Source: Minisyncoccota bacterium | GTDB taxonomy: Bacteria > Patescibacteriota > Minisyncoccia > Phycocordibacterales > SBAW01 | Assembly: GCA_035546615.1 (NCBI GenBank) | Contig: DASZWM010000007.1 | Span: forward strand, 1-64,000 | Direction: 5' to 3' | DNA length: 64,000 nucleotides | Part shown: piece by piece, positions 25,668-53,038 of the stretch | Layout: every line of letters starts with the position of its first letter | Position numbering within the stretch: position 1 is the first letter of the stretch | Program-made: the position numbers and the translations under genes | Notes under the pieces: generated by a model | Database searches by the model: none | What the model was told of the DNA's origin: nothing | The model's input: only the letters and a program-made list of their open reading frames with translations

Positions 25668-27032
25668 TCACTGCCGCAGTTTAGCGGCCGCCGCCCGGCG
25701 GCCATGCGCCACGTACATCACGTGCTTCGGGAGCGCACGCGCGTCGAACATTCCCCACGGGTCTATGACGACCGTGCGCTTCTTCGCCTTTGCAAGCAGC
25801 GCGGGAAGTTCGCTGAAAAGCGGATCGGGATTGGATACGAATATGACTGAGCTCTGGCGCGCCAAGTCAGCAAGCGTCGGCACATGCAGAACCGACGTGC
25901 CCAGCAGGGTTTGTGCTTCCGCGCTGCCTAAAGGCTCGAACACCGCGACGCGGTAGCGATTGCGCAGCATGCGCTCCACGAGCGCCAGCGCCTGCGAGGC
26001 TTCGCCGTGCGTGGTCTTGGGCTTGTAGGAAATGCCGAGGAATCCGACGACGTCGCGCTTGCTCCCGGCATGCTCCTCCAAAAGCGCATACATGCTCTCT
26101 TCCATCGTTTGGTTGAGGATGTCGGTGGAGCGCGCCAGGTGCGCGGTGAAACCGCGCCGCTTTGCCATCGCATAGAACGCGCGGTTGTCGCGCGGGAAGC
26201 AGGGGCCGCCGAAGCCGAGCCCAGCCTTCAGGAACTTGCGCCCGATGCGCGAGTCCTTCCCTATCGCATTGGTTATCTCGTCGACATCGGCGTTCGGGAT
26301 GCGCGAGGCGATGGCGGCCAGGCCGTTGGCGAACGATATCTTCATCGTCAAGAACGAATTGAGCGCAATCTTGGCAAGCTCCGCGCTCTCCACGCTCATG
26401 CGCTCTATGGCCTGCGACCCCGGATACAGGGTCGTAAAGATCCCCTCCACCGCGTCGCCCGCGCGCCCGTCGTGCGCGCCGAGGAACACGAAGTCGGGGC
26501 GCTCGAGGTTGTTAAGAATGTCGCCGATGGCGATGAGGCTCGGGCTGTAGACGTAGCCGAAGTCGCGGCCGCAGACCTTGCCCGACGCGCGTTCGAATTC
26601 GGGTATGATGCGCTCGCGCGAGTCCCCCGGCAATACGGTGCTCACCAGCACGAACGTGTGCCATCCCTTCTTGCGCCTGAGCGCCGGGCCCATCGTGCGC
26701 GCCGCGGCGGCCACGTAGTCGACCGAGAACAGCCCGCTCTTTTCGCTCGGCGTGGGCACGATGATAAACGTGATGTCGGTCTCGGCTATGAGCCGGTCCA
26801 TGTCGGTTGTTGCCGAAAGGCGGCCCCTCGCCGCGGTTATGTAGTCCTGGAGGCCCGGCTCGGGCACGGGCGCCTTGCCCGCCTCGATGCTCGCGACCTT
26901 ATGCTCATCAACGTCGAACCCGAGCACCTCGAATCCGGAGCGCGTAAGGAACGCCGCATAGCACGCGCCGAGCTTCCCGAGCCCCACCACCGAAAGGCGC
27001 GGGAGTTTTTTCTTTGTGGTTTTTGTTTTCAT
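25668..27032 (-). CDS. Nucleotide-sugar dehydrogenase (UDP-glucose/GDP-mannose dehydrogenase family)
   Basis: N-terminal Rossmann VVGLGKLGACYAAFL, catalytic GFGGPCFPRD, C-terminal UDPG_MGDP_dh domain. Confidence 0.85.
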   Translation of the reverse strand: MKTKTTKKKLPRLSVVGLGKLGACYAAFLTRSGFEVLGFDVDEHKVASIEAGKAPVPEPGLQDYITAARGRLSATTDMDRLIAETDITFIIVPTPSEKSGLFSVDYVAAAARTMGPALRRKKGWHTFVLVSTVLPGDSRERIIPEFERASGKVCGRDFGYVYSPSLIAIGDILNNLERPDFVFLGAHDGRAGDAVEGIFTTLYPGSQAIERMSVESAELAKIALNSFLTMKISFANGLAAIASRIPNADVDEITNAIGKDSRIGRKFLKAGLGFGGPCFPRDNRAFYAMAKRRGFTAHLARSTDILNQTMEESMYALLEEHAGSKRDVVGFLGISYKPKTTHGEASQALALVERMLRNRYRVAVFEPLGSAEAQTLLGTSVLHVPTLADLARQSSVIFVSNPDPLFSELPALLAKAKKRTVVIDPWGMFDARALPKHVMYVAHGRRAAAAKLRQ

Positions 27033-27134
27033 GACAGCAGACGGTCGCTGGTATTCGCCTAATCCTACAGAACGCTTACTGATAAATCAATTTCAAAGGT
27101 GTTACGGCGGGGATACGCGAAGCGCAATAAAGAT

Positions 27135-27163
27135 ATTGACAAAAAGTCATAAGGTGATACAAT
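27135..27163 (+). promoter_or_regulatory. Sigma70-like promoter TTGACA-17-TACAAT for the NUDIX gene
   Basis: ttgacaaaaagtcataaggtgatacaat read from sequence; 29 nt upstream of ATG 27192. Confidence 0.5.
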
Positions 27164-27191
27164 TATAAAGAACGTACCGACGCGCAACAGT

Positions 27192-27692
27192 ATGGAAAGG
27201 AAACGTTACGTGGGAAGACTGACCAATGAAGACTACGCACGGATATTCGACCGGACGACGGGACTCGGCATTGTCCGCGCCGCATGGGACCTCCTCATTC
27301 TCGACGAGGACAAGCGGGTCGCGCTCGTGCAGCGGGACATCCCGCCGGAGCTGGGCACCTGGCATTTGCCGGGCGGCAAGATAAACGGCGGCGAAAGCTT
27401 CCAGGAGTTTGCTTCGCGGGTCGCGAAGCACGATCTCGGCATCGGCGTCGAGTTCGTTGACGCGGTAGGCGGCCTCAACTTCCCTGCAGAGGTATCGACG
27501 ATGGAAGTAGAGGGCGAAGAGCGCGAGCTCACCATCCATACCGTCTCGACTATCCTGCTGTGCAAGCCGCTGTCAGCCGGTTTGCGCGGCAGCGCCGAAG
27601 GCAAGAATGTCGGATGGTTCGCAACGGCGCCGAAGCCTGCGCACAGCGTCCATATTCCGTGGCTCCTGAAGCACGGCTACCTGCAGGCCTAA
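27192..27692 (+). CDS. NUDIX hydrolase
   Basis: GGKINGGESFQEFASRVAKHDLGIGVE Nudix box-like; 166 aa. Confidence 0.75.
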   Translation: MERKRYVGRLTNEDYARIFDRTTGLGIVRAAWDLLILDEDKRVALVQRDIPPELGTWHLPGGKINGGESFQEFASRVAKHDLGIGVEFVDAVGGLNFPAEVSTMEVEGEERELTIHTVSTILLCKPLSAGLRGSAEGKNVGWFATAPKPAHSVHIPWLLKHGYLQA

Positions 27693-27715
27693 CGGCCGGC
27701 GGAACAACAGAAAAG

Positions 27716-27744
27716 AGGGCGGGGAAATATCCCCGCCCTTTTTA
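27716..27744 (+). terminator. Intrinsic terminator AGGGCGGGG-aaatat-CCCCGCCCT + TTTTT
   Basis: Read from sequence directly after NUDIX stop. Confidence 0.6.
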
Positions 27745-27787
27745 TATAAAAAAGATATAGAAGTTACCGTGCGAGCCTTATAGTGAT

Positions 27788-27816
27788 ATTGACATATAGT
27801 ATCAAAAGTGCTATAA
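27788..27816 (+). promoter_or_regulatory. Consensus sigma70-like promoter TTGACA-17-TATAAT
   Basis: ttgacatatagtatcaaaagtgctataat. The -10 ends 10 nt before the annotated GTG start at 27827. Confidence 0.55.
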
Positions 27817-27826
27817 TAGAGAATAG

Positions 27827-28669
27827 GTGACCGGATGCATTTCTGCAACCAGCACGAACACGGAGGTCATTGATTTGTCTACGTTCAAAACGTATTTGGA
27901 GACGCTGCAGGCGCAGCTCATCCCCTCTTACACGCCGCCGGCCACACCCGGCGGCTACGACGTCAACCACGTCCTCGAGATGGCGGCCCTGGGTCCGAGC
28001 ATCAAGGCGCTTCCGCGCTATAAGACCCTCGACATGGAGGAGTTCGTCACGGCGGTCTGGCTGCACAACAGCGACCGACCCGACAGCATGGTGAACTTCC
28101 TGCACAACAAGGACTACCCGCGCGGGGACGACGGCTGGAAGAACGACAACTGGAAGCCATACCTCCAGAAGCTGCTCGCCGACAGCCCCTTCGACGATGA
28201 GGCACGGAACCGCATCATTGACGCTGTGCTCGAGCACTCCAAGAAGGACGATGAGGAAGGCGATTCAGTCCTTCTCACCGCGCTGCGCATCGCCGACAAG
28301 GTGGTTCGCTTCGGGCCGCTTGGCATGATGGGCCAGCCCGCCAATCGCGGGCGCACCCAGATGTTCTACGACCCCGAGGAACCGTTCGTCTACGGCTCGA
28401 CGGCGGAGGACAAGCTGCGCGCGGTATGGAACGACTACTTCCGCGTGCTCGAGTGGCTTACGATGCTTCTCAAGCGCGCGCTGACCGAAGACGAGCTGTG
28501 GTCGCTGGTGGACAAGGCGGACATCGCCGACGAAGTCCACTACATCCGCGGCGTCGGCCGGCAGATCGCCCGCGTCACCGGGGGCGAGAACAAGGTCGAA
28601 GAGTGCGTGCAGAAGGCGCTCGGCGATCTCTACAAGCAGTTCCCGCCGATGCAGCTCGTGCCCGCCTAG
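27827..28669 (+). CDS. Hypothetical protein, possibly HD-superfamily phosphohydrolase-like. GTG start per track; alternative TTG at 27875 preceded by GGAGGT
   Basis: 280 aa; weak HD-like motifs (VNHVLEMAAL, WLHNSDRPD, LLTALRIADKV); own promoter and terminator. Confidence 0.5.
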   Translation: MTGCISATSTNTEVIDLSTFKTYLETLQAQLIPSYTPPATPGGYDVNHVLEMAALGPSIKALPRYKTLDMEEFVTAVWLHNSDRPDSMVNFLHNKDYPRGDDGWKNDNWKPYLQKLLADSPFDDEARNRIIDAVLEHSKKDDEEGDSVLLTALRIADKVVRFGPLGMMGQPANRGRTQMFYDPEEPFVYGSTAEDKLRAVWNDYFRVLEWLTMLLKRALTEDELWSLVDKADIADEVHYIRGVGRQIARVTGGENKVEECVQKALGDLYKQFPPMQLVPA

Positions 28670-28847: not shown

Positions 28848-29843
28848 ATGTACCAGAATCGGGAGATAAAAACGGCCCTTGTCCTGGGCGCCGGCGGCTT
28901 TATCGGCAGCCACCTGGTTCGCCGCCTCAAGAAAGAGGGCTTCTGGGTCCGCGGCGTCGACCTCAAATACCCTCAGTTCAGCATCCCCGAGGCCGACGAG
29001 TTCGTCCTGGGCGACCTGCGCGACCAGGCGGTGTGCCTCGGCGTGTTCGACCGGCCGTTTGATGAGGTGTATCAGCTGGCAGCGGACATGGGCGGCGCCG
29101 GCTATATCTTTACCGGCGAGCATGATGCCGACGTCATGCACAATTCCGCGACCATCAACCTCAACGCGGCGTACTACGGCCGCCAGGCGGGCGTGAAGAA
29201 GTTCTTCTACTCGTCCTCCGCATGCATGTACCCCGCCTACAACCAGGTGGACCCGGACAACCCCAATTGCGCGGAAGACTCCGCGTATCCGGCAGCCCCC
29301 GACAGCGAGTACGGCTGGGAGAAGCTTTTCAGCGAGCGCCTGTACCTCGCCTTCAAGCGCAACTACGGCCTCAACGTGCGCATCGCCCGCTTCCACAATA
29401 TCTTCGGCCCCGAAGGCACCTGGCAGGGCGGCAAGGAAAAGGCGCCGGCCGCGATATGCCGCAAGGTCGCTGAAGCGCCTCAGGGCAGCAGCATAGAGAT
29501 ATGGGGCGACGGCGAGCAGACCCGCTCCTTCCTATATATAGATGAGTGCCTCGAGGGCATGCGTCGCCTCATGGACTCCGAGTTCGAGGGCCCGGTCAAC
29601 ATCGGCTCCGACGAAATGGTAACCATCAACCAGCTGGCGCAGATGGCCATGGATGCCGCCGGAAAACAGCTTTCCATAAAGCACATTGACGGTCCGCTCG
29701 GCGTGCGCGGCCGCAACTCGGACAACACGCTCATACGGCAAATGCTCGGCTGGGCACCGTCTGCACCGCTGCGTGAGGGTGTCGAGAAGACGTATCGCTG
29801 GATAGAACAGCAGCGCCTGCTCAATTCGATACGTCCCCGGTAA
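28848..29843 (+). CDS. NAD-dependent epimerase/dehydratase (extended SDR) family sugar-nucleotide enzyme
   Basis: ALVLGAGGFIGSHLVRRL Rossmann motif, YSSSACMYP catalytic region, YxxxK. Confidence 0.85.
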   Translation: MYQNREIKTALVLGAGGFIGSHLVRRLKKEGFWVRGVDLKYPQFSIPEADEFVLGDLRDQAVCLGVFDRPFDEVYQLAADMGGAGYIFTGEHDADVMHNSATINLNAAYYGRQAGVKKFFYSSSACMYPAYNQVDPDNPNCAEDSAYPAAPDSEYGWEKLFSERLYLAFKRNYGLNVRIARFHNIFGPEGTWQGGKEKAPAAICRKVAEAPQGSSIEIWGDGEQTRSFLYIDECLEGMRRLMDSEFEGPVNIGSDEMVTINQLAQMAMDAAGKQLSIKHIDGPLGVRGRNSDNTLIRQMLGWAPSAPLREGVEKTYRWIEQQRLLNSIRPR

Positions 29844-29866: not shown

Positions 29867-30688
29867 ATGCAAACCACGACCATCATCCAGCCCCGCAAGA
29901 AGCTGGGGCTCGCCGACCTGGCAGAGCTCTGGCGCTACCGCGAGCTGCTTTTTTTCTTTTCCTGGCGCGACCTTAAGGTGCGCTACAAGCAGACCGCTAT
30001 CGGGGTGGCGTGGGCGGTGTTCCAGCCGCTGGCTACTATGCTTATCTTTACCCTGTTCTTCGGGACGCTCCTCAAGGTCCCGTCCGACGGCATTCCCTAC
30101 CCGATCTTCGTCTATACCGGCCTTCTGTTCTGGCAATTCTTTTCCTCGTCGCTTGGCGACGTCAGCGGCAGTCTGGTGTCCAACCAGTCCATCATCACCA
30201 AGGTCTACTTTCCCCGCCTCATACTGCCGCTTGCGGTCGTGGCGACCAACTTCATCGACTTCTGCGTCGCCTCGGGCGTCCTGGTCGCGCTGATGGTCTA
30301 TTACGGGTTCCTGCCCAACCTCATGGGCCTCTTCATACTGCCCGTCTTGCTGCTTATGACCTACTTCGCGGCGCTCGGCGGCGGCCTATTCCTTTCCGCG
30401 CTCAACGTGAAATACCGCGACGTGCGCTATATCCTTCCCTACTTCATGCAGATGCTCCTCTTCATCACGCCGGTCATCTACCCGGCCAGCATCGCGGGAA
30501 AGTACTCCTGGCTACTCGCCATAAACCCGATGACCGGCATCATCAAGGCCGCGCGCGGCGCTTTGCTCGGCACGGAGCCGGTCAACTGGGCGCTTTTGGG
30601 AATTTCTTCGCTCGCCATCCTCGTGCTCTTTGCCGTGGGACTTGTCGTGTTCAAGAAGACCGAGCGTTACTTTGCCGATATCGTATAA
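29867..30688 (+). CDS. wzm: ABC-2 type polysaccharide/O-antigen export permease
   Basis: 273 aa, 6 TM helices, ABC2_membrane signature LWRYRELLFFFSWRDLKVRYKQTAIGVAWAVFQP. Confidence 0.85.
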   Translation: MQTTTIIQPRKKLGLADLAELWRYRELLFFFSWRDLKVRYKQTAIGVAWAVFQPLATMLIFTLFFGTLLKVPSDGIPYPIFVYTGLLFWQFFSSSLGDVSGSLVSNQSIITKVYFPRLILPLAVVATNFIDFCVASGVLVALMVYYGFLPNLMGLFILPVLLLMTYFAALGGGLFLSALNVKYRDVRYILPYFMQMLLFITPVIYPASIAGKYSWLLAINPMTGIIKAARGALLGTEPVNWALLGISSLAILVLFAVGLVVFKKTERYFADIV

Positions 30689-30759
30689 ACAAAAAGTTGA
30701 AAGTCAATTATGTCCATAAAGTCAAAAGTCTTTAATGCCTGTACAGTGAGAGAAGGGAT

Positions 30760-31104
30760 ATGACCATAGAACGATTCGAGGACATACTTGCATGGCAGAA
30801 AGCAAAAGAGTTGACGCTTTTGGTATATGCGGCATTCAAGGATAATAAGGATTACGGCTTCAGGGACCAGATACAAAGGGCCTGCGTTTCAATAATGAAT
30901 AATATCGCTGAAGGTTTTGAAAGAAAGGGCGATAAGGAATTCAAACAATTCTTATACATTGCCAAAGGGTCCTGCGGAGAAGTCAGATCTATGTTGGACA
31001 TCGCCCTGGGCTTGGCGTATGTAGATCAAGAGCACTATACGCGCTACCGCGATCTATCCGTCGACACTTCTAAATTGCTGTCGGGATTCATCAAGACGCT
31101 TTAG
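30760..31104 (+). CDS. Four-helix-bundle protein (23S rRNA intervening-sequence protein family), inserted between wzm and wzt
   Basis: AWQKAKELTLLVYAAFKD...IAEGFERKGDKEFKQFLYIAKGSCGEVRSML signature; local GC clearly lower than flanks. Confidence 0.85.
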   Translation: MTIERFEDILAWQKAKELTLLVYAAFKDNKDYGFRDQIQRACVSIMNNIAEGFERKGDKEFKQFLYIAKGSCGEVRSMLDIALGLAYVDQEHYTRYRDLSVDTSKLLSGFIKTL

Positions 31105-31124
31105 ACATTCAACATTCTGACTTT

Positions 31125-32381
31125 ATGGACAATTTACCCATCATCGAGATACAGGGCATCGGAAAGAAGTATGACATCAACCACCAGCGCGGCGGCTATA
31201 TCGCCCTGCGCGATGTGCTTGCGTACATGCTCAAGCGGCCGTTCAGCTTCTTCAAGGCAAAGGCCAAGCGCGCCGTCGGGTTCGATAAAAAGGAGGAGTT
31301 CTGGGCCCTGCGCGACGTATCGTTCTCGGTCGGAAAAGGCGAGGTAGTGGGCGTCATCGGCCGCAACGGCGCGGGCAAGTCGACGCTTCTCAAGATCCTG
31401 ACCGGCATCACGCCGCCCACCGAAGGCCGGGCCGTCATGCGCGGACGCGTGGCGTCGCTGCTTGAGGTCGGGACCGGCTTTCATCCGGAGCTGACCGGCC
31501 GCGAGAACATCTTCCTCAACGGAGCCATCATCGGCATGACGCGCCGCGAGATAGCGCGCAAGTTCGACGATATCGTCGCGTTCTCCGGCATCGAAAAGTT
31601 TCTCGATACGCCGGTGAAGCATTACTCAAGCGGCATGTACGTGCGGCTCGCCTTTTCGGTGGCCGCGCATATGGAGCCGGACGTCCTTATCGTGGACGAA
31701 GTGCTCGCGGTCGGCGACGCGGAGTTCCAGAAAAAGTGCCTCGGCAAGATGGAGGAGGTGACCCGCTCCGATGGCCGCACGATACTCTTCGTGAGCCACA
31801 ACATGGCGGCGGTCGCGGCCCTATGCAAGAAGGTTGTCGTACTCGAGCACGGTACGGTAGCTTTTTACGGGCCGACGCACGAGGCTATAGACTTTTATAT
31901 GAATCGGTTTACATCCGCCGCCGGCGGCGCTCCTGCCAGCTTCTCGCTCGGACCCGTACGCTTGGACAATTTTACCCTCAACGGCGCTCCGGCGAACGCA
32001 ATACCGCAGATTGCCTCCGGCGAGCCTCTTTCGATAGGTGTCCGCGTTGAGAGCACGGATCCCACTGGCAGGCTCAATATCGGCTATGGCATCCGCCGGC
32101 GCAGCGACGCATCGCTCATGGTGTTCTCGCACGCAGACCTCGAAAGTGCTAAATTACCTTCTGCCTCCGGCATCATAGAAGCCCGGTTCGATATGCCGCG
32201 GCTCGCGCCCGGCGACTACATCGTGGAATTCCAGGCCAAATACAATGACGCGGCGGGCATCCCGGAAAAAGAGATAGGCGGGTTCACGGTGCCTGAAACG
32301 CGGGCCTTCAAGGCCGAGCAGACGTTTAGGGACTTTCCCTCCGCCGTATTGGCCAACTCGAACTGGAACCATATTCGATAA
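31125..32381 (+). CDS. wzt: ABC transporter ATP-binding protein Wzt/TagH-like with C-terminal glycan-binding (Wzt_C-like) domain
   Basis: Walker A GRNGAGKST, signature YSSGMYVRL, Walker B LIVDEVLAVGD; about 170-aa C-terminal beta-rich extension. Confidence 0.85.
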   Translation: MDNLPIIEIQGIGKKYDINHQRGGYIALRDVLAYMLKRPFSFFKAKAKRAVGFDKKEEFWALRDVSFSVGKGEVVGVIGRNGAGKSTLLKILTGITPPTEGRAVMRGRVASLLEVGTGFHPELTGRENIFLNGAIIGMTRREIARKFDDIVAFSGIEKFLDTPVKHYSSGMYVRLAFSVAAHMEPDVLIVDEVLAVGDAEFQKKCLGKMEEVTRSDGRTILFVSHNMAAVAALCKKVVVLEHGTVAFYGPTHEAIDFYMNRFTSAAGGAPASFSLGPVRLDNFTLNGAPANAIPQIASGEPLSIGVRVESTDPTGRLNIGYGIRRRSDASLMVFSHADLESAKLPSASGIIEARFDMPRLAPGDYIVEFQAKYNDAAGIPEKEIGGFTVPETRAFKAEQTFRDFPSAVLANSNWNHIR

Positions 32382-32440: not shown

Positions 32441-34969
32441 ATGAAAAAGGCTCTTCTTTCTTTCTCGAAAAAGCATTTCGATCCTTCTGGTGAGGAGCAA
32501 GTCTTTTATGCTTCGAGCATGAGCATTATGATTGAGGGATTATACAATGCTCTCCGGAAAGCCGATTATGCGGTCGACTACATAGACTCCTGTGAAAATC
32601 CCAAGGGTCCGGGTCCCTATGATTTGTTTGTCGGTAATCTTACACGATGGATGGATATCGCTTCGCAAAGCGAGGCGACTGTAAAGATCATCTTTATGGA
32701 AACCAGCCATCCGGTTAATCGCAACGAGCGCATGAAAGCATTGCGTGCAAGGTGGAACGTGCCACGAGACGAGGAATTGCTCGACACATCGTATACCGCA
32801 CTACGCGCGTTCGAGCTTGCGGATTACGTTATACAGGTGGGCAACGGAGTCAATATGGACGCTCTTGTTGCTAATGGAGTGCCCCGGGACAAAATTATCC
32901 CTCTCCACTATGGTCTTCCGTTAGCATGGAACAAACACGACATTCTTGCGCGCGGCGCGCTGAATAGATATGTTCATACGGCTGCGGAAATGGGATTACG
33001 CAAGGGGCTTCAGGAACTGATAGGGGCGTTCGGCTCCCCTACGTTCAAGAATATGTATCTGACTCTTATCGGGAACGTACGCAAAAAGGAGAACTACGCT
33101 TTTTGGAACTCTCGACTGGAGACTCTTAAGAAGGAAAATCCTGGTGTTGTGCACCTAGGATTTATCGACGCATCGTCGAGAAGATACTCCGAAATTTTGG
33201 CCGAACACGCATGGTATCTGTTCCCGTCGGCAGAAGAAGGCGAACCGGGAACCGTACTGGAAGCGATGACTCTTGGTTTAGTGCCAATCCTGACGCGAGA
33301 TAGTGGGATAGATTTCGCGCTCGATGGGAACTTTGAGGCTACGTTCAAGGAATCTCTTGATAAAACGCTTGCCATATCGAAAGAACAGTGGAGCATTCTC
33401 TCAGAAAAGGCCCGGCACTATATAATATTATTCCACGATCACGCCCTTTTTGAGAATCGGCTGGCCGAATTGTTCGGCAAGATAGCCGGTGGCGCGCGCG
33501 ATTTGCGTCCTACCGCGAGCATTATACTGACTGTCCACGACAAAGAAAAACATATCGTACGGCTGCTACAGACCCTTCTTACGAATACTCGCTCCTATCC
33601 TCACTGGGACCTACATATTATCTATGATGGCTGCAGCGACGCGTCGCGGCAAGTAGCGCAGGAAACCCTGAAGGACTTCCCTGTTACGGTATACGAGTAT
33701 GAAACGCCTGACGTATGGGAAGTAAAAGCAAACAATTACGGTCTCAAGCGGGCGCAAGGTAAATATTGCGTCATTCTACAGGACGACAACTTCATATATG
33801 AAGAAGGGTGGCTCGAAAAGATGCTCTCTTGGCTCGAGGAGCACCCGAAGGTCGGCATATTAGGAGGCTTGGCAGGCGTAAACTTCTTCCATCTCGACTC
33901 CTCCGATCCGAAGGGCCCGGGGGTGAACCGCTCCGCATTCGAGCTTCACCAGCGACTCGACCCAGCAGTACAGATTGAACTGCGGGATTTCATCTTCGAA
34001 GTTGACGCGGTCATGCGCGGGCCAATCATCCTTCGGAAAGCTCTGCTTGAGAAGCACGGTTACTTCGACGAAACGTACGCCCCGCTCTACAACGACGACA
34101 TGGACTACTGCTTCCGAATGCGGAGCCTTGGCTATGGGGTATTCTGCTACCCCATCAATGTGGTGAACGAGAGCCTTACGGTGGCACAGTATAAGAACCC
34201 GGTAAAGGACAAATTCTGGAAAGATACGGCGGAAAAGAACCAGAAACTATTATATAGGCGCTGGAGCGGAGATATAGAGAAATATCATGCGATCCAGATA
34301 AAAGTACCGAAACCCACCCTTGCAGCAGTCGGGGCTTTCCGGAAACAGCATACGGCGCGTCTGCCCAGGCTCAACATGTATGATATTCGCGTGCGGTCCC
34401 GCGCCGCAGCCCGCGCGATGTTCCTGCGCCTGCCCGCTTCTTTGGTGCGCGGCCTGATTCAAACGCTAAGATACGCGGGAGGTCGCGGAATCGCGGAGAA
34501 GCTCCGCGTGCACTATTTCGAGGGTAAGACTATTCCGTGGCGGCTCGCAAACGGCGATGCGAACCTGCGGGTCGAGTACCCACTCGCTTCCTCCTCGCTC
34601 ATATACAGCATCGGCGAGAAAAACGCGCAATGGGCGGAAGTTATGCGGCGCCGGTACGGATGTATGGTGCGTACACTTGCCTCCTGGCCTGCCGTGACGG
34701 ATGTGGGAAAAGACCTCGAAGCGCGCATACGAGGGCAGGGGGATATAGATCTGCTGAGTCTCTACATGGATGGTGGAGAATACGAGCTCCTGGAAATGCT
34801 GCTTGATAGCGGCACGGTGCAGAGTATTAGGAATATCCAGATAAAATTCGACGACAGCGCCCCCGACGCCATATCGCGCGTGCGTGCTATCCGCAAGCGG
34901 CTACGCGAGACGCACGCACCGACCTACCAATATGATTTCGTGTGGGAGAATTGGGAAAGAAAGAAGTAA
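32441..34969 (+). CDS. Tri-domain glycosyltransferase: GT4-like, GT2 (DxD QDD), and a C-terminal FkbM-methyltransferase-like region
   Basis: GT4 E-x7-E EEGEPGTVLEAM; GT2 ILTVHDKEKHIVRLL...IYDGCSDAS...ILQDDNF; C-term DLLSLYMDGGEYELL resembles the FkbM IDLLKxDIEGAE motif. Confidence 0.75.
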   Translation: MKKALLSFSKKHFDPSGEEQVFYASSMSIMIEGLYNALRKADYAVDYIDSCENPKGPGPYDLFVGNLTRWMDIASQSEATVKIIFMETSHPVNRNERMKALRARWNVPRDEELLDTSYTALRAFELADYVIQVGNGVNMDALVANGVPRDKIIPLHYGLPLAWNKHDILARGALNRYVHTAAEMGLRKGLQELIGAFGSPTFKNMYLTLIGNVRKKENYAFWNSRLETLKKENPGVVHLGFIDASSRRYSEILAEHAWYLFPSAEEGEPGTVLEAMTLGLVPILTRDSGIDFALDGNFEATFKESLDKTLAISKEQWSILSEKARHYIILFHDHALFENRLAELFGKIAGGARDLRPTASIILTVHDKEKHIVRLLQTLLTNTRSYPHWDLHIIYDGCSDASRQVAQETLKDFPVTVYEYETPDVWEVKANNYGLKRAQGKYCVILQDDNFIYEEGWLEKMLSWLEEHPKVGILGGLAGVNFFHLDSSDPKGPGVNRSAFELHQRLDPAVQIELRDFIFEVDAVMRGPIILRKALLEKHGYFDETYAPLYNDDMDYCFRMRSLGYGVFCYPINVVNESLTVAQYKNPVKDKFWKDTAEKNQKLLYRRWSGDIEKYHAIQIKVPKPTLAAVGAFRKQHTARLPRLNMYDIRVRSRAAARAMFLRLPASLVRGLIQTLRYAGGRGIAEKLRVHYFEGKTIPWRLANGDANLRVEYPLASSSLIYSIGEKNAQWAEVMRRRYGCMVRTLASWPAVTDVGKDLEARIRGQGDIDLLSLYMDGGEYELLEMLLDSGTVQSIRNIQIKFDDSAPDAISRVRAIRKRLRETHAPTYQYDFVWENWERKK

Positions 34970-34990
34970 TGCAATACAGAATTATCCTGG

Positions 34991-44209: not shown

Positions 44210-44272
44210 ACGGCAGTAACAGGACCCCAACTCATCGGACGCGCGGTCATGGCCAGAATATAGCACGGAAGG

Positions 44273-45340: not shown

Positions 45341-46094
45341 GCGGAGTGAAGATGAAATTATTCACGTACGAAGGGCTCTTGAAATCCTCCGGACGCTGGT
45401 TGTGACCCGCGCTGAAATCCGACAGCGGCCGGAGCACCTGCGAGGCGCGGTCCCAGAAGGATCCTTCGTACCCGCGCGCGAGTATCCACGCGAAGATATC
45501 CTCTATCGGCTCGGTGTGGTGGCGCTGCTCTATCTCGACGATAAGAGCGGGACGATCTTCGGCGAGGGTCTTCTGCGCGCCAAGCAGTACGTCTTTCTCA
45601 TGGCCCTCGACATCTATCTTGATGCACCCGACCGGCCCGCAATGGGCGGCGGCTTTTGCCTCATCGAGCGTCAGGGTGGCAACCGTCTCTACCTGCGCGG
45701 CCTCCTCCCCGTCCTCTTTAAAATCTTCAAGGGTCCCGCGCGTCGGGTATTCCCGCCCGCGTATCGTGGGCACCTTGAACCGCGCCTCTCCGGCGCGCGA
45801 GGAAAGGGCCGCCTGCGCGATATGCGCGCCCGGAAACAGCTGCTTGAGTTGGGAAACGTACTGCGCCTGCGGCTCGAAGGCGTATATGCGGGAAAGGGGC
45901 AGGTGCGCGCTTGCCGCGTATACGTACGCTCCTACGTTGGCGCCTACGTCGAAGAACGCTTTATTCGGATCGATCAGGTCCCCGAGCAGGAACAGCTCGG
46001 GTTCCGCGCTCGTGCGCGCGATATCGCCGGGGCGCATAGGGCCGAGGTGGCGGAATTGCCGGTACCGCAGGATGGCCGCTATAAGGGTGTTCAT
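45333..46094 (-). CDS. FkbM family methyltransferase
   Basis: FFDVGANVGAYVYAASAHLP ... IYAFEPQ ... IKIDVEGHEKDVL. Confidence 0.8.
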   Translation of the reverse strand: MNTLIAAILRYRQFRHLGPMRPGDIARTSAEPELFLLGDLIDPNKAFFDVGANVGAYVYAASAHLPLSRIYAFEPQAQYVSQLKQLFPGAHIAQAALSSRAGEARFKVPTIRGREYPTRGTLEDFKEDGEEAAQVETVATLTLDEAKAAAHCGPVGCIKIDVEGHEKDVLLGAQKTLAEDRPALIVEIEQRHHTEPIEDIFAWILARGYEGSFWDRASQVLRPLSDFSAGHNQRPEDFKSPSYVNNFIFTPHG

Positions 46095-49173: not shown

Positions 49174-49174
49174 A

Positions 49175-50182
49175 TCACTGCCACAGGGAGCGCTTGCGGG
49201 TCCCCCGCTCGCGTATCCATTTCGCTACCGGCTCAAGCCCTTCCTCGAGCCCGACCTTCGGCGACCAGCCAAGCTTCTCGCGTATCTTCGCGATATCGAC
49301 CTCGCGGCGCAGGGCCGTATCGGCTTGCGTATCGACGACCGCGTATTTAAAGGGCCGGTCGCCGCCGTATTTCTCCCAGATACGCTTGCCGAGCTCGAGA
49401 ATGGTGTAATGGGTGTCGTTTCCTATATTAAAGTCCTCGTTCTTCACCATATCTTCTGCCCGGGCGGCGCGCATCACCACCGCAACCGTCGCCTCAACGG
49501 CGTCGTCGATATATACGAACGGCCGGGTGGCTTCCGGGTTTCCGAGGAACTCAAGCGGATACTGGCCGCCCAGTACTTTCTGAAGGAGTGCCGGGATGAC
49601 ATGGATATCGCCCGGGGTGGAGCCTTTGGAATCCTCGCCGGGGCCGTAAATATTGTGATAACGGATGATCGTATACTCCAGGCCGAACTGGGCCGCATAC
49701 GAGCGGCAGAAGTATTCTCCCCCGAGCTTTGCGAAGCCGTACACGTTGGACGGCGGCCGGATGTCGCGGATATCCTTCTCGGTGTACGGAAATTGCGGCG
49801 GATATTGGAATACCGCCGAGCTTGAGGAATAGATGACCCACGGGATCTTGTTCGCGACAAGCGCCGGGTAGACGGCGGCGTCTATGGCCGAGTTGTTGGT
49901 GAGTATCTCGGCCTGGTGATCGTGCATGTACGTGAGCGAACCGATATCCGCCGCCAAGTGGAGCACGAGATCGGCGCCGGCAAGACCCTTCAGCGCCTCG
50001 CCCGGGATGCGCAGGTCGTGCCGGCGGAACTCGATGCCCGGCGAGAAGGTGATGCCGCGCTCCTCGGGGGTTGCGATGTCGACCACGAGAACCTTTTCTC
50101 CCGCCTTATTGAGCGCCTCGGCCACGCGGCTGCCGACGTAGCCGGTGCCGCCGGTGATGAGAATGGTTTTGCCCGTAGCCAT
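49175..50182 (-). CDS. NAD-dependent epimerase/dehydratase (SDR). Start MATGKTILITGG at 50182; the track start 50209 is a short over-extension
   Basis: ILITGGTGYVGSRV ... YSSSSAVF ... YGFAKLGGEY (YxxxK). Confidence 0.85.
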   Translation of the reverse strand: MATGKTILITGGTGYVGSRVAEALNKAGEKVLVVDIATPEERGITFSPGIEFRRHDLRIPGEALKGLAGADLVLHLAADIGSLTYMHDHQAEILTNNSAIDAAVYPALVANKIPWVIYSSSSAVFQYPPQFPYTEKDIRDIRPPSNVYGFAKLGGEYFCRSYAAQFGLEYTIIRYHNIYGPGEDSKGSTPGDIHVIPALLQKVLGGQYPLEFLGNPEATRPFVYIDDAVEATVAVVMRAARAEDMVKNEDFNIGNDTHYTILELGKRIWEKYGGDRPFKYAVVDTQADTALRREVDIAKIREKLGWSPKVGLEEGLEPVAKWIRERGTRKRSLWQ

Positions 50183-50225
50183 ATAGCCTATAACTATGCA
50201 TAATGGCATAAAATTGCAAAAAGAA

Positions 50226-50250
50226 AAGGGCGGCCCGTGGGGCCGCCCTT
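50226..50250 (-). terminator. Intrinsic terminator AAGGGCGGCCC-gtg-GGGCCGCCCTT with a minus-strand U-run (TTTCTTTTTGC)
   Basis: Perfect 11-bp stem read from sequence, 10 nt after stop of 50261-50743. Confidence 0.6.
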
Positions 50251-50260
50251 TCTGCGTCTT

Positions 50261-50743: not shown

Positions 50744-50874
50744 TGTGCTGCGTCATGGATCTCCCATGACGGTTGGCGGATCTCCGCTCAACAAATTATA
50801 TTATATACTATACAAGTAAACTTGTCAATAGAAGCCGACCGAGGCGTGGTTGAAGTGAGTGGTTCTCTAAAAGC

Positions 50875-51891
50875 TTAAAAGGCCAGGAGAAGAATAGCAT
50901 CGATAACGACTATGGCCGCCGCAAGCACCAAAAACGGCCGCCAGTAGCGCGCAAGAAACTCGCGCGGGTCGGAGATATTCTTATACAAAGAGAACCACAG
51001 CTCGCGCCATGCGACGAAGCCCGACATGTGCGGCGTCTGCCATGCGGAGAACCACTCCGGCAGCGCCGGATGCCGCACCGAAAGCGCCTCATGCGCCGCG
51101 TTGGACGCGTACACGCCGCGAAGAAGGTCGACGTTCTTCCCCTGCTCGCCGAACCACTTCACGAACGCCCGCGTATCCTTGGGAAGGCAGTGTCCACCGA
51201 ACGCGCGCCCGTAGCGGGTGTACCCTTCCCCGCCGAGCACGAAGTTAAGAACGCGGCTGATGGAATCGACATCCTGGGGAGTCGAGGGTTCCGCTATCGC
51301 GTCGCCGAACTCGTTGACGAAGGCGATGCGCGTCGCGTTCCAGAGATTTGAAAGATATTTCACGAAAGCGGCCTCCCGCGGAGTGCCGCCGAACTGGAGC
51401 GGCGTCGCGCGCTGCCACGCGTCGAAGAACGCCGGCCGCGAGGTTTTCGTGTCGCGGATACCGAGCACGAAGAAGTGCGGCGAGAGGCATTCCTCGACTG
51501 CCGTTTTCTCGTGCAGGAATTCCGGCATGTAGAAATCAAAGTTGAGGCTTTCGAGCAGGTCGGGGATGACCGTGGAGCGCAGCACCACAGCGCCCTTCGC
51601 ATCTTTCAGCGATTCAAGCGCCGCGCGTATGGCGCTTATGTCCTGCGTGCCGTCCTCCGCCACCTTGTCGCCGACGCATACGATGTACGCCGTGTCCGCC
51701 GCATCGCGCTCAAGAACACCCGAAAGCCGCGTAATGCGCCCGTACGCATCCGCGTACGTATCTGTATAGTGCAGCGACGGATTGCCCGGGTCAAAATAGG
51801 AAACATGGAATCCCATGCGCGAAAGCGCCAGGGCGTTCGCCTGCCCTACCCATCCGAAGCCCACTATCACAACCGTGCCGCCCGTTTGCAT
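50875..51891 (-). CDS. Divergent nucleotide-sugar dehydrogenase-like protein (UDPG/MGDP dehydrogenase N-terminal and catalytic region) with C-terminal TM helix
   Basis: VVIVGFGWVGQANALAL Rossmann, GGHCLPKD catalytic Cys motif, C-term FLVLAAAIVVIDAILLLAF hydrophobic. Confidence 0.65.
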   Translation of the reverse strand: MQTGGTVVIVGFGWVGQANALALSRMGFHVSYFDPGNPSLHYTDTYADAYGRITRLSGVLERDAADTAYIVCVGDKVAEDGTQDISAIRAALESLKDAKGAVVLRSTVIPDLLESLNFDFYMPEFLHEKTAVEECLSPHFFVLGIRDTKTSRPAFFDAWQRATPLQFGGTPREAAFVKYLSNLWNATRIAFVNEFGDAIAEPSTPQDVDSISRVLNFVLGGEGYTRYGRAFGGHCLPKDTRAFVKWFGEQGKNVDLLRGVYASNAAHEALSVRHPALPEWFSAWQTPHMSGFVAWRELWFSLYKNISDPREFLARYWRPFLVLAAAIVVIDAILLLAF

Positions 51892-51925
51892 AGGAGTTAC
51901 CGTACCATTTCGGGAAAATAAGTAA

Positions 51926-53038
51926 ATGCTATATGCTTGCAGTATGGATAACCGCGCTCCGTTGATATACGTTTCCCCCTATTACGACCCCAAGGTGCCT
52001 TCGGGAGCTAACCGCCGGTTCGACGAGATATGCCGGCGATACAGCCGCGACTACGGCGACCGCTTTACGCTCATTGTCGCCAAAGGAAAGGTCCCCCTAT
52101 GGTGGAACGGCAAGAACCTGGTCGAAGTCGACTACAAGTTCGACCACCCCAGCAAATTCACCGCGGCGCGGCAGATAGCGAAAGTGCTCGACGCCTTGCC
52201 CCCGTCCATCGTCGTTATCGAGTCGGTCCCGGTCCCCTACCGCGCGCTCAGGCGCCACATGCAGGTCCAGGTAGTGTACGATTTCCGCTACTTCACCGGC
52301 GACAGCAAAAGCTTCCTCTACCGCCTCATATTTACGCCGTACCTTAAGTGGCAATGGGGCCGCTCGCAATTCCTCCTTACCTGCAGCGACTTTTCGGTGG
52401 CTGAAGCGCGCAAGTACCTGCGCTACGACCCGGCCCGCGTCATAAAGAGCTACTTCGGCATCGACGAGAAAGTGCTCGACCTGGCGAACACGCCCGCGCC
52501 CGCCAAGGACGTCGACATCATATACGTCGCCCATTTCGAGAAGCGCAAGAATCACGAGCCGCTCATCCGCGCTATCGCGCGGCTTAATAAGGATTTGCGC
52601 GTGGTATTTAACGGCCGCGACAACGGCATGCAGGCGGAGCTCGAAGCCTTGTGCCGCGAGCTCGGGCTTACGAACGTTACCTTCAGCGGGGGCAAGTCTG
52701 ACGCGGAGCTGTGGAACATGTATCGCAGGAGCCGCGTCTTCGCCTACCCTTCTTTGTACGAAGGCTTCGGCATCCCGCTTATCGAGGGTCTGGCGCTCGG
52801 CGTGCCGGTAGCCGTCGCGGACACGGAAGTGTTCCATGAGGTCGGTAGCGATCTGGTATCGTATTTCGACGGCCGCGACCCAGAGGATATTGCCCGCGTA
52901 CTTAAAGGAATTCTGGATAACCCGCAGGTGCCGTCTCCCGAGAAGGTCCGCGCGCACTTGGAAAAATTCTTCTGGGAGAATATCTACAAAAAGATGGTGG
53001 AGGATACGGAGGCCGAGGCCGGGCCGCTTTTGCGCTAA
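51926..53038 (+). CDS. Glycosyltransferase family 4
   Basis: FEKRKNHEPLIRA ... YPSLYEGFGIPLIEGLALGVPVAVAD. Confidence 0.8.
   Translation: MLYACSMDNRAPLIYVSPYYDPKVPSGANRRFDEICRRYSRDYGDRFTLIVAKGKVPLWWNGKNLVEVDYKFDHPSKFTAARQIAKVLDALPPSIVVIESVPVPYRALRRHMQVQVVYDFRYFTGDSKSFLYRLIFTPYLKWQWGRSQFLLTCSDFSVAEARKYLRYDPARVIKSYFGIDEKVLDLANTPAPAKDVDIIYVAHFEKRKNHEPLIRAIARLNKDLRVVFNGRDNGMQAELEALCRELGLTNVTFSGGKSDAELWNMYRRSRVFAYPSLYEGFGIPLIEGLALGVPVAVADTEVFHEVGSDLVSYFDGRDPEDIARVLKGILDNPQVPSPEKVRAHLEKFFWENIYKKMVEDTEAEAGPLLR

Follow-up and report, generated by a model that had tools for sequence, protein, structure and literature searches.

In every case studied, the carbohydrate-binding domain (CBD) of Wzt reads the cap that terminates the chain to be exported (PMC9445017, PMC2943079). 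In the slg cluster of Geobacillus, wzm-wzt is directly followed by the gene for WsaE, which joins a methyltransferase to two glycosyltransferase (GT) domains; the predictions for that cluster have Wzt reading a methyl cap and a Wzy_C oligosaccharyltransferase acting in the final step (PMC2943079). C-terminal TPR domains are carried by P. alvei WsfB and by PglL, which are protein O-oligosaccharyltransferases (PMC2943079). The locus described here (a Wzy_C+TPR putative ligase, wzm-wzt, and then a fused GT-GT-methyltransferase gene) is closer in its order to these Gram-positive S-layer protein O-glycan clusters than to the E. coli O8/O9a type, and the fused GT-GT-FkbM gene 3' of wzt parallels that for WsaE.

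The window (the whole stretch of 64,000 nucleotides analyzed) comes from the MAG of an uncultured Candidatus Paceibacterota (CPR) bacterium, as shown by the 100% identity of its Wzt to a protein of such a MAG, and the closest loci are from Parcubacteria/Paceibacterota. Searches of Pfam, NCBIfam, and the PDB upheld the predicted coordinates of an island of ~30 kb with genes for building, methylating, and exporting sugars (Table 1). At least 12 GT genes and five methyltransferase genes fall within 27 kb, far above chance expectation, and the gene order is repeated in relatives L081, L082, and L083. A sequence-only reading had called this an ABC-transporter-dependent glycan locus, which is supported by the presence of Wzm and of a Wzt with a Wzt_C-fold domain. 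Our preferred reading, to which we give a probability of about 0.55, is a variable surface-glycan island whose ABC-transporter-dependent pathway makes a non-LPS cell-surface glycoconjugate. The product is most likely a methylated mannose/L-galactose surface glycan, joined to a cell-surface acceptor by a conserved ligase, and not a classical fucose-bearing O-antigen.

Table 1. Features of the glycan island and its left flank, with the matches on which each assignment is based
Feature	Position	Strand	Evidence
Wzy_C (O-antigen-ligase-type) membrane enzyme with C-terminal TPR domain	23040..25319	-	Pfam Wzy_C E 5e-22; several TPR models
Dabb (stress-responsive A/B barrel) protein	25324..25647	-	Pfam Dabb E 1.5e-13
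Nucleotide-sugar 6-dehydrogenase (uronic acid supply)	25668..27032	-	TIGR03026 296 bits (cut-off 190); 3/3 UDPG_MGDP_dh Pfam domains
NUDIX hydrolase	27192..27692	+	Pfam NUDIX E 1.3e-8
280-aa protein	27827..28669	+	No Pfam or NCBIfam match
GDP-mannose 3,5-epimerase (GME) orthologue, beside wzm	28848..29843	+	Arabidopsis GME 2c59 E 1e-97
Wzm, ABC-2 permease of glycan exporter	29867..30688	+	Pfam ABC2_membrane E 7e-17
Low-GC insertion between wzm and wzt, 436 bp	30689..31124	+	GC 0.44
23S-rRNA-IVP (four-helix-bundle) ORF inside insertion	30760-31104	+	Pfam 23S_rRNA_IVP E 1e-32
Wzt, 418 aa: ABC ATPase (residues 1-261), CBD (residues ~262-418)	31125..32381	+	A. aeolicus Wzt 8dku E 4e-63
842-aa fusion: GT4, GT2, degenerate FkbM-derived C-terminal domain	32441..34969	+	Pfam GT4 residues 180-290, GT2 360-580
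505-aa protein: ~250-aa N-terminal domain, divergent GT11-like domain	34983..36500	+	Pfam GT11 29.8 bits, limited to C-terminal half
FkbM-family methyltransferase 1	36504..37223	+	PF05050 E 4e-22; TIGR01444 44.9 bits
Conserved 332-aa protein, DxD-like motifs	37211..38209	+	No Pfam match
GT11 glycosyltransferase a	38206..39108	+	PF01531 124 bits; HVRRGD
GT11 glycosyltransferase b	39120..40019	+	PF01531 101 bits; HVRRGD
Class I SAM methyltransferase	40050..40847	+	Methyltransf_25, _23, _12, _31, _11, E about 1e-13
GT15, Kre2/Mnt1-type alpha-1,2-mannosyltransferase-like (fungal-type)	40840..41760	+	PF01793 93 bits, E 2e-26
Class I SAM methyltransferase, 208 aa	41774..42400	-	Methyltransf_11 E 1.6e-13
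Class I SAM methyltransferase, 235 aa	42402..43109	-	Methyltransf_11 28.7 bits (gathering score 21.2)
GT4 glycosyltransferase	43106..44209	-	Glycos_transf_1 E 5e-23
GT4 glycosyltransferase	44273..45340	-	Glyco_trans_1_4 E 2e-12
FkbM-family methyltransferase 2	45333..46094	-	PF05050 E 2e-18; TIGR01444 92.7 bits
Three successive GT4-type genes	46120-47184, 47246-48163, 48160-49173	-	Last is a weak match
SDR nucleotide-sugar epimerase/dehydratase	49175..50209	-	Pfam Epimerase E 3e-42
Truncated nucleotide-sugar-dehydrogenase-like protein, hydrophobic C-terminus	50875..51891	-	UDPG_MGDP_dh central and N domains only
GT4 glycosyltransferase; island right edge	51926..53038	+	Glycos_transf_1 E 5e-29

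Wzm is 97% identical to its L081 orthologue and 64-68% identical to those of other Parcubacteria. The C-terminal domain of Wzt (~160 aa) scores 29.6 bits (E 8e-7) against Pfam Wzt_C, slightly below the gathering score of 30.4. A profile of its family matches solved Wzt CBDs (A. aeolicus 8dky, E 7e-9; 5hno, E 3.5e-3), and a Foldseek search with an AlphaFold model of the domain (pLDDT 87, pTM 0.82) returned Wzt CBDs as all of the top 12 matches (TM 0.45-0.56). Together, profile and predicted structure support a genuine Wzt_C-fold CBD, as the C-terminal extension had been taken to be. The residues of the A. aeolicus methyl pocket (L300, T346, A348, and W362) are not conserved in the aligned window Wzt, which leaves a methyl cap as a prediction. 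Relative to the L081 orthologue, the nucleotide-binding domain is 96.5% identical, the CBD only 65%.

In the pathway that we propose, a lipid-phosphate-linked primer would be made by a phosphoglycosyltransferase encoded outside the window; no enzyme of this kind (Bac_transf or MraY/WecA type) was found in the 64 kb, and L082 has one in its locus. Chain extension, in the cytoplasm, would then fall to the fused GT4-GT2 enzyme together with six further GT4, two to three GT11, and one GT15 enzymes. The fused enzyme, a candidate for the chain-building role, belongs to a family with only 41 members among 5.8e9 proteins, and the named members are all Patescibacteria, barring one weak partial match. 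Its gene lies directly 3' of wzt in L081 and L083; in L082, one small FkbM gene intervenes. Distant members carry PF05050. In the clade of the window, a deletion has removed 48 residues from the C-terminal FkbM-like domain and the SAM loop is gone (VFDvGGYxGxW is replaced by IYSIGEKNAQW); the domain is undetected by Pfam. By its sequence, it is a truncated, degenerate remnant of an FkbM homologue. Thus, of the six methyltransferases counted previously, two FkbM and three class I SAM enzymes hold, and the sixth is this remnant.

The count of GT genes also needed revision. Two of the three proposed GT11 genes are canonical; the third, the 505-aa protein, is divergent, with HYRTGG where HxRRxD is expected (74% identity to the L081 orthologue), and its N-terminus (~250 aa) matched no family. 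The eight or more GT4/GT2 genes claimed are seven proteins with eight domains, one of them weak. The GT15 gene is kept in L081 and L083. The minus-strand GT4 triad recurs, in the same order and beside a TraG-like gene, in L086; homologues of two of its members, and of GT4_386, occur upstream of wzm in L082. The 332-aa protein has counterparts, 52-82% identical and equivalently placed, in L081, L082, and L083, and its gene neighbors those for GT11 enzymes in relatives. The 280-aa protein had no tblastn match in any relative locus compared and is absent at that position in L081.

The donors would be mainly GDP-sugars, with GDP-mannose used by the GT4 and GT15 enzymes. The epimerase beside wzm (90% identical to the L081 orthologue) keeps all eight named catalytic and substrate-binding residues in alignment (S143, C145, Y174, K178, N203, K217, R243, and R306; roles from PMC8787198). 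As GME makes GDP-L-galactose/L-gulose and not 6-deoxy sugars, its presence points to L-galactose/L-gulose, which, made in situ, would probably replace GDP-fucose as the donor for the GT11 enzymes. The link between GT11 and GME is co-location in this lineage only, given that other GT11 loci have no GME within 10 kb, and vice versa. The fucose or 6-deoxyhexose branches foreseen from the sequence alone find no counterpart: There is no gmd, fcl, or rml orthologue in the window, where all NCBIfam models for these scored far below their cut-offs. Uronic acid would come from the nucleotide-sugar 6-dehydrogenase (87% identical to the L081 orthologue). The SDR protein has tied best PDB matches, GME and GalE (about E 1e-32), and reaches the cut-off of no NCBIfam model; the truncated dehydrogenase-like protein scores 111 bits with TIGR03026, under its cut-off of 190.

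The five SAM methyltransferases would O-methylate sugars, and the non-reducing-end cap would consist of one such methyl group or of some other terminal modification. Once the CBD of Wzt had recognized this cap, Wzm/Wzt would carry the complete chain through the membrane. The family models indicate no substrate; because the methyltransferases are co-operonic with GTs, a capped, methylated polymer is a reasonable prediction. The plus-strand class I enzyme and the 208-aa enzyme are 95% and 86% identical to their L081 orthologues, respectively, and the 235-aa enzyme has 41% identity with a methyltransferase in L082.

On the outer side of the membrane, the Wzy_C enzyme would take the glycan en bloc off its lipid carrier and join it to an acceptor. 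By analogy with S-layer O-glycosylation in Gram-positive bacteria, this acceptor is most likely a protein of the cell surface (S-layer, pilin, or giant-adhesin type). The O-antigen-ligase-like/TPR protein noted upstream of the island does carry both domains. Its likely true start is at 25277 (745 aa). Hydropathy and the positive-inside rule predict ~13 TM helices and place both a large loop, at 289-375, and the TPR domain, at 480-759, on the extracytoplasmic side. There are at least 120 full-length homologue clusters (52-92% identity), and among these homologues, all but one of those named are Patescibacteria/Paceibacterota. The gene divergently adjoins wzm-wzt in the window and in L001, L002, L003, L004, L005, and L081. 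The protein is a candidate for the ligase or oligosaccharyltransferase that joins glycan to acceptor; its match is to generic Wzy_C only, a sequence signal that does not separate lipid ligases from protein O-oligosaccharyltransferases, and a search for a solved relative found none.

With the same export, the product could instead be a secondary cell-wall polymer or lipoglycan, joined to peptidoglycan or a membrane glycolipid anchor by the Wzy_C+TPR protein or by an LCP enzyme encoded elsewhere. We consider this possible, if unlikely. After A. aeolicus O-antigen Wzt, the Wzt ATPase domain finds its next-best matches (NCBIfam, PDB) in TagH/TarH of teichoic acid and Wzt/RfbE of mycobacterial galactan; the ligase gene adjoins murB in several Parcubacteria, and WaaL-type Wzy_C enzymes ligate to glycolipids. 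However, LCP, TagF/TarL, CDP-glycerol, and CDP-ribitol genes are all absent from the window, a Wzt_C domain is not normally part of TagH-type exporters, and the C-terminal TPR is the arrangement of the protein O-oligosaccharyltransferases introduced above (PMC2943079). It is more doubtful that two adjacent pathways are present, the plus-strand wzm-wzt operon (~27.2-41.8 kb, with the convergent methyltransferases) and a separate GT4/FkbM/SDR operon on the minus strand (43.1-51.9 kb) for another glycoconjugate. The genes do lie on opposite strands and converge at 41.8 kb, L086 has its triad with no wzm-wzt within 10 kb, and conservation in L081 was verified for the plus-strand part only. Against this, homologues of three minus-strand GT4 genes (27-37% identity) directly precede wzm-wzt in L082, with the same orientation, and the window has no additional exporter, nor a flippase or polymerase (Wzx/Wzy, synthase). 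An LPS O-polysaccharide of E. coli O8/O9a type (methyl-capped, with fucose/6-deoxyhexose branches and a WaaL-type ligase attaching it to lipid A-core), the frame originally put forward, is highly improbable: Although the closest solved relatives of the Wzt_C-fold domain are O-antigen exporters, a Wzy_C protein adjoins wzm-wzt, and methyltransferase and GT4/GT11 genes are many, the host is a member of the Paceibacterota and lipid A/LPS genes are reported absent in Parcubacteria (PMC5220378), so the glycan should not be an LPS O-antigen, and, further, profile searches found no LPS-related gene in the 64 kb window, no WbdD-type kinase/methyltransferase terminator is present, and GME stands in place of the absent 4,6-dehydratase pathway.

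The island is mosaic, and relatives show this better than GC content does. L084 shares SecA (95%) and Wzy_C (92%) and has GtrA, GT2, and other genes instead, with no wzm-wzt; in L081, Wzy_C is only 70% identical, yet Wzm is 97%, one methyltransferase 95%, and GME 90%, and the two domains of Wzt differ in the same way (96.5% against 65%). As judged from these comparisons, the ligase and its neighbors SecA and MurB are a conserved anchor, and the adjoining glycan genes are swapped between lineages. The GC dips taken earlier as a sign of shuffling are real (0.44 in the IVP gene and 0.48 in the GT4 domain of the 842-aa gene, versus a window mean of 0.587). However, the orthologous genes of L081 are equally GC-poor, so the dips are not evidence of recent transfer, except for the IVP cassette, the only lineage-specific insertion. 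In L081 it is absent and wzm and wzt abut. A 17-nt inverted repeat flanks the insertion (30711-30727 / 31115-31131, 94% complementary), its right arm extending into wzt (to 31131).

A minus-strand ORF overlapping the NUDIX gene (27147-27539) found no support. The NUDIX and Dabb genes, with identities of 76% and 78% to their L081 counterparts, had been missed in the earlier gene list, as had those for the GT15 enzyme, the conserved 332-aa protein, and GME.

The genes at 23.0-53.0 kb confirm the gene content described from the sequence alone and support its interpretation in part. They are best read as an ABC transporter-dependent pathway of the slg/O-antigen type in a CPR bacterium, a known type of pathway that would here serve a new phylum and a new chemistry. 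Its distinguishing features are a family of fused enzymes hardly found outside Patescibacteria, the pairing of a GDP-mannose 3,5-epimerase (GME) with GT11 enzymes, and a TPR-bearing ligase anchor conserved across the phylum. Gene identification used Pfam, NCBIfam, and PDB searches, and these left the inventory of the sequence-only reading essentially unchanged. The window is gene-dense, with a GC content of 58.7%, and the genes flanking the island are housekeeping or CPR-typical. A lax Pfam scan gave nothing credible for the 280-aa, 332-aa, 160-aa, and 455-aa proteins or for the N terminus of the 505-aa protein. Scans for tRNA and Rfam families detected no RNA near the island that could mark an integration site, the sole match being a tRNA-Leu at 62.5 kb.

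Features of the glycan island and its flanks (positions on the forward strand of the window; cells are empty where no value applies)
Feature	Position	Strand	Remark
Giant LVIVD-repeat ORF	1-10758	-	left flank; >3586 aa, runs off the left window end
SecA, MurB, Obg, GatB, Laminin_G_3 protein			left flank
Wzy_C+TPR membrane protein	23040-25319	-	left end of island
Dabb protein	25324-25647	-	
Nucleotide-sugar dehydrogenase	25668-27032	-	TIGR03026, 296 bits
NUDIX hydrolase	27192-27692	+	
280-aa protein		+	no known family; between NUDIX hydrolase and SDR epimerase
SDR epimerase (predicted GME)	28848-29843	+	
Wzm	29867-30688	+	
IVP cassette	30689-31124		436 bp, 44% GC
Inverted repeat of cassette	30711-30727, 31115-31131		17 nt, 94% complementary
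23S-rRNA-IVP gene	30760-31104	+	small; between Wzm and Wzt
Wzt	31125-32381	+	
842-aa GT4+GT2 protein	32441-34969	+	starts 60 bp after wzt
505-aa protein	34983-36500	+	GT11-like C terminus
FkbM methyltransferase (FkbM1)	36504-37223	+	after 505-aa protein
332-aa protein		+	conserved, no known family; after FkbM1
GT11 pair	38206-39108, 39120-40019	+	
Class I methyltransferase		+	after GT11 pair
GT15	40840-41760	+	
Two class I methyltransferases, two GT4		-	right part
FkbM methyltransferase (FkbM2)	45333-46094	-	right part
Three GT4 (one weak), second SDR, 160-aa protein		-	right part, further along
GT4 genes with homologues in a distant relative	43106-44266, 46120-47184, 47246-48163, 48160-49173	-	four of the five minus-strand GT4 listed above
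Truncated dehydrogenase-like protein	50875-51891	-	right part
Last GT4 of island	51926-53038	+	
Lamin-tail-domain protein	53035-53748	-	right flank
TraG/VirD4-like ATPase, PGA_cap, Mur ligases			right flank
tRNA-Leu (CAG)	62457-62543		only tRNA gene of the window
LAGLIDADG_3-domain ORF	62500-63195	-	

The ATPase domain of Wzt is matched by ABC_tran (E 4e-22) and by the Aquifex aeolicus Wzt structure 8dku (E 4e-63), and Wzm is encoded upstream. Taken alone, the C-terminal domain scores 29.6 bits (E 8e-7), 0.8 bit under the gathering score of 30.4 for Pfam Wzt_C (PF14524), and the precomputed Pfam annotation of an NCBI protein identical to this Wzt lists PF14524. A profile built from the C-terminal 157 residues and 22 homologues matches the carbohydrate-binding domain (CBD) of A. 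aeolicus Wzt (8dky/6o14) at E 7e-9 and that of Raoultella O12 (5hno) at E 3.5e-3. The domain was also modelled with AlphaFold (pLDDT 87.2, pTM 0.82); in a Foldseek comparison of this model with the PDB, the best 12 matches were all Wzt CBDs (7k2t, 6o14, 8dky, 2r5o; E 3e-5 to 4e-4), with 5hno at rank 14 (query-normalised TM 0.64). Among these, 8dky is the A. aeolicus CBD with 3-O-methyl-mannose, and 2r5o is the CBD of E. coli O9a. Profile and structure searches thus agree that the domain has the Wzt_C fold, as had been proposed from the sequence.

An LPS O-polysaccharide setting of the O8/O9a type did not hold up for this exporter. The host is a member of the Paceibacterota (its Wzt is 100% identical to a protein of a Candidatus Paceibacterota MAG), the best related loci among GTDB genomes are from Parcubacteria/Paceibacterota, and no lpx, kds, waa, or lpt genes occur within the 64-kb window; therefore, an LPS frame does not suit this host. 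A curated genome paper also reports Parcubacteria to be without lipid A/LPS genes, and calls it unclear how the CPR envelope is formed and built (PMC5220378). CBD-dependent O-antigen export in E. coli O8/O9a, Raoultella terrigena O12, and A. aeolicus (PMC9445017) does share with the locus the Wzm/Wzt architecture and the C-terminal beta-sandwich fold of Wzt; methyltransferases are present in the locus, whose GT4 enzymes could plausibly work with GDP-sugars of the mannose type. The differences are the LPS-free host, a ligase that is a TPR fusion highly conserved across the phylum, and the lack of a WbdD-type terminator with its coiled-coil ruler: Pfam and NCBIfam scans detected no WbdD-like protein or kinase domain, and the methyltransferases are only stand-alone FkbM and class I enzymes. 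In addition, the residues of the A. aeolicus methyl pocket (L300, T346, A348, W362; PMC9445017) are not conserved in the Wzt alignments.

In architecture, the locus comes closest to the S-layer glycan (slg) clusters known from Paenibacillus alvei and from Geobacillus stearothermophilus NRS 2004/3a (PMC2943079). In Geobacillus, WsaE (a methyltransferase plus two GT domains) is encoded after wzm-wzt, and a 2-O-methyl cap, proposed to be read by Wzt, terminates the chain; the last step, transfer of the glycan, is ascribed to an enzyme with a Wzy_C domain, and the P. alvei one (WsfB) carries a C-terminal TPR (PMC2943079). The likeness extends to an LPS-free host, a fused two-GT/methyltransferase enzyme following wzm-wzt, a Wzy_C enzyme with TPR, and central GT genes that are GC-poorer than their surroundings. 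A WbaP-type initiator (a TIGR03025 phosphoglycosyltransferase) occurs in a relative, locus L082, and is missing from the window. However, the domain order is GT4-GT2-FkbM rather than methyltransferase-GT-GT, the domain families differ, the FkbM domain is degenerate in the window enzyme, and the sugars are proposed to be GDP-mannose/L-galactose-based instead of dTDP-rhamnose-based. The phylum differs as well (CPR), and the window has neither an initiator nor an identified S-layer/acceptor gene; searches for S-layer and Bac_transf genes in the window gave no match. Because the architecture matches the slg clusters, we propose that the glycan would be assembled in the cytoplasm on a lipid carrier, methylated, and capped, that the Wzt CBD would recognise the cap, and that after export by Wzm/Wzt the Wzy_C-TPR protein would transfer the glycan en bloc to an acceptor on the cell surface, which is most likely a protein.

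The counterpart of WsaE, the 842-aa protein, belongs to a family with only 41 clusters in 5.8 billion proteins, and all of its named close members are from Patescibacteria. The conserved N-terminal motif of the family (MKKALLS.S..HFDP) supports the 842-aa start; the NCBI annotation is of 816 aa. The fused GT4-GT2-FkbM gene also follows wzt in L081, L082, and L083 (three related loci). In family members at 38-45% identity (~890 aa), an FkbM domain (PF05050) is detected. Aligned with these, the window protein and its close relatives are missing 48 residues in the middle of the FkbM domain, and the SAM-binding loop VFDvGGYxGxW reads IYSIGEKNAQW in the window clade, although the flanks of the remnant are still strongly conserved (e.g., an invariant WENW end). 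The homology is visible solely through the distant members: Pfam gave no FkbM match at the C terminus, BLASTP of the C terminus against both FkbM genes of the window found nothing, and a PDB sequence search with the whole protein matched only the GT2 domain. The C-terminal domain is thus homologous to FkbM but degenerate, and the remnant probably keeps a noncatalytic role.

Given the deletion and the lost SAM loop, the six methyltransferases originally counted become five plausible enzymes (two FkbM and three class I SAM, all solidly identified) plus one degenerate domain. No substrate could be assigned by NCBIfam scans of these five, of the GT11 genes, or of two GT4 genes, and the family models do not separate sugar from small-molecule methyltransferase substrates; it is context that argues for sugar methylation, as the genes are operonic with GT genes and the combination recurs in L081, L082, and L083.

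The sugars themselves seem to differ from those first suggested. The SDR adjoining wzm matches Arabidopsis GME at E 1e-97 (next family, 1e-27), and all eight residues S143, C145, Y174, K178, N203, K217, R243, and R306 are identical to 2c59 in the alignment; they comprise a Ser/Tyr/Lys triad and a Cys-Lys acid/base pair, plus R243, R306, and N203 (PMC8787198). It is thus a GME orthologue with predicted epimerase activity, like the plant and Methylacidiphilum enzymes (PMC8787198, PMC6678494) in its orthologous sequence and complete catalytic set, and unlike them in its place inside a CPR glycan export locus, adjoining GT11 genes. The fucose/6-deoxyhexose branches of the sequence-only reading find no pathway in the 64-kb window, where 4,6-dehydratase, GDP-fucose, and dTDP-rhamnose enzymes are all missing (such NCBIfam models score far below cut-off), although other parts of the genome could encode fucose enzymes.

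The GT11 pair is canonical, with full-length PF01531 matches at 124 and 101 bits and the motif HVRRGD (HxRRxD). The third, divergent member, the 505-aa protein, matches at 29.8 bits over its C-terminal part only (HYRTGG), and its ~250-aa N-terminal domain falls in no family. L-galactose is 6-hydroxy-L-fucose. Because GME is present and no 6-deoxyhexose enzyme occurs in the 64 kb, the two canonical GT11 enzymes are, judging from co-location only, more likely to be L-galactosyl/L-gulosyl transferases than fucosyltransferases. The other loci do not combine GT11 with GME within 10 kb, and a search for gmd/fcl in GT11-bearing relatives gave no equivalog match for the SDR genes of L082 and L083. GT15, a family of Kre2/Mnt1-type alpha-1,2-mannosyltransferases best known from fungi, is represented by a 93-bit match and is kept in several Paceibacterota glycan loci, including L081 (16565-17530) and L083 (13566-13817). 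The GT15 and GT4 genes fit GDP-mannose chemistry. The nucleotide-sugar dehydrogenase, by its family match, implies a uronic acid. The truncated dehydrogenase-like protein is without the C-terminal UDP-binding domain and ends in a hydrophobic segment; it may be a paralogue of that dehydrogenase that has degenerated or been repurposed.

The proposed ligase, the Wzy_C+TPR protein (Wzy_C, E 5e-22), adjoins wzm-wzt in seven loci. It is unusually conserved for a ligase-type enzyme, with at least 120 clusters, nearly all from Patescibacteria, at 52%-92% full-length identity. From hydropathy and the positive-inside rule, ~13 TM helices are predicted, with the catalytic loop and the TPR outside the membrane. 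A PDB sequence search returned TPR proteins only, with no WaaL or PglL relative at the sequence level; Pfam found no PglL-specific domain, and searches of the literature for O-antigen ligases or teichoic acids in Patescibacteria turned up no work on this system. The PglL and PilO/TfpO systems use short Und-PP oligosaccharides flipped by Wzx/PglF-type flippases, whereas export here would be via Wzm/Wzt. They do resemble the locus in that a Wzy_C-domain membrane enzyme adjoins a variable glycan locus, and PglL has a TPR motif (PMC2943079).

As for the acceptor, the glycan may instead be attached to peptidoglycan or a glycolipid, but a protein is the most likely choice under the slg-like pathway. 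The lamin-tail-domain protein, which adjoins the last GT4 gene, has a signal peptide, an Ala/Pro/Lys/Ser/Thr-rich low-complexity linker, and a C-terminal TM anchor. Because linkers of this type are typical O-glycosylation sites, it is a speculative acceptor candidate. The giant LVIVD-repeat ORF (164 bits for the repeats, strong GC skew) belongs with the giant surface proteins typical of the CPR and, again speculatively, could be a glycosylation target.

Comparison with related loci separates a conserved anchor from a variable cassette. Four of them, from Parcubacteria (L001, L002, L003, and L005), keep the order SecA - MurB - Wzy_C/TPR - (sugar genes) - Wzm - Wzt, with 61%-67% identity to the window in SecA and 64%-68% in Wzm, and contain no homologues of its GT genes. 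Locus L084 (GCA_037975565.1 JBBCBH010012538.1, 1-9964), the nearest relative judged by these two proteins, is 95% identical in SecA and 92% in Wzy_C, and has GtrA, GT2, asparagine-synthase fragments, three other methyltransferases, and a 575-aa unknown protein beside Wzy_C. No wzm-wzt occurs within 10 kb, and many genes of the contig are fragmented, suggesting low assembly quality. In L084, the anchor is thus paired with another glycan cassette. Conversely, L081 (GCA_035546075.1) matches the plus-strand operon gene for gene, except for the IVP gene and the 280-aa ORF; its Wzy_C is only 70% identical to that of the window, yet identity is 97% for Wzm, 95% for one methyltransferase, 90% for GME, and 87% for the dehydrogenase, and falls to 50%-77% for the GT11 genes, GT15, and FkbM1. 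Even single genes are discordant, with 96.5% identity in the ATPase domain of Wzt but only 65% in the CBD, and 89% in the GT2 domain of the 842-aa enzyme but only 51%-59% in its GT4 domain. The module Wzm-Wzt-[GT4-GT2-FkbM]-FkbM/MT-unknown-GT11 recurs in L082 and L083, with GT15 also retained in L083. The discordant identities are what one sees at O-antigen loci, where the anchor stays conserved and the adjacent glycan cassette is exchangeable and recombines internally.

Mosaic content had been proposed earlier from swings in GC. The dips are real (0.44 in the IVP gene, 0.48 in the GT4 domain of the 842-aa gene, 0.50 in FkbM1), and the discordant identities back the mosaicism; however, GC is just as low in the L081 orthologues (0.55, 0.54, 0.51), so low GC is an old property of these genes and does not count as a sign that the 842-aa and FkbM genes were transferred recently.

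The minus-strand GT4 block could represent a separate pathway, but in L082 the wzm-wzt operon includes homologues of its GT4 genes, and the window has no second exporter. In a distant relative (L086; JACCDG012073149.1, 4793-17867), a TraG-like ATPase gene is followed by homologues of the GT4 genes at 48160, 47246, and 46120 and, further along, of that at 43106, which points to conservation of a GT4 module close to this ATPase gene. A metagenome scan with one GT4 found distant relatives only (no more than 38% identity).

There is also a tentative general model, to which we assign a probability of roughly 0.3: the highly conserved Wzy_C-TPR protein beside secA/murB would be a Paceibacterota-wide surface-glycan ligase/O-oligosaccharyltransferase, and the adjacent hypervariable, horizontally exchanged cassette would be the CPR counterpart of O-antigen serotype switching, building in this lineage a heavily O-methylated mannose/L-galactose glycan by way of fucosyltransferase-family (GT11) enzymes with GDP-L-galactose and the CPR-specific fused GT4-GT2-FkbM enzyme. 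If so, attachment to hosts and recognition by phages would depend in these episymbionts on the variable glycans. CPR bacteria spend their lives on the surface of other microbes, so that surface glycans are probably important to them in recognising hosts and in defence against phages. The CPR envelope is essentially uncharacterised, and the locus offers a testable handle on it, with a conserved putative ligase and exchangeable cassette, a putatively cap-reading exporter in an LPS-free organism, a predicted L-galactose-containing methylated glycan, and a fused enzyme found nearly only in Patescibacteria. No known principles are overturned. A bacterial GME paired with GT11 may be of some interest for L-sugar glycoengineering.

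The only lineage-specific insertion is the IVP cassette between wzm and wzt, which L081 lacks; there, wzm and wzt abut. Its ORF, for a 23S-rRNA-intervening-sequence protein, is flanked by the inverted repeat, the right arm of which includes the wzt start codon. The terminal stem is present in both the MFE and centroid folds, and the overall fold z-score is only -1.3. The cassette looks like an rRNA-IVS-type stem-plus-ORF element inside an mRNA, and could affect wzt translation or RNase III processing. Far from the island, the LAGLIDADG_3-domain ORF overlaps the 3' part of the tRNA-Leu gene.
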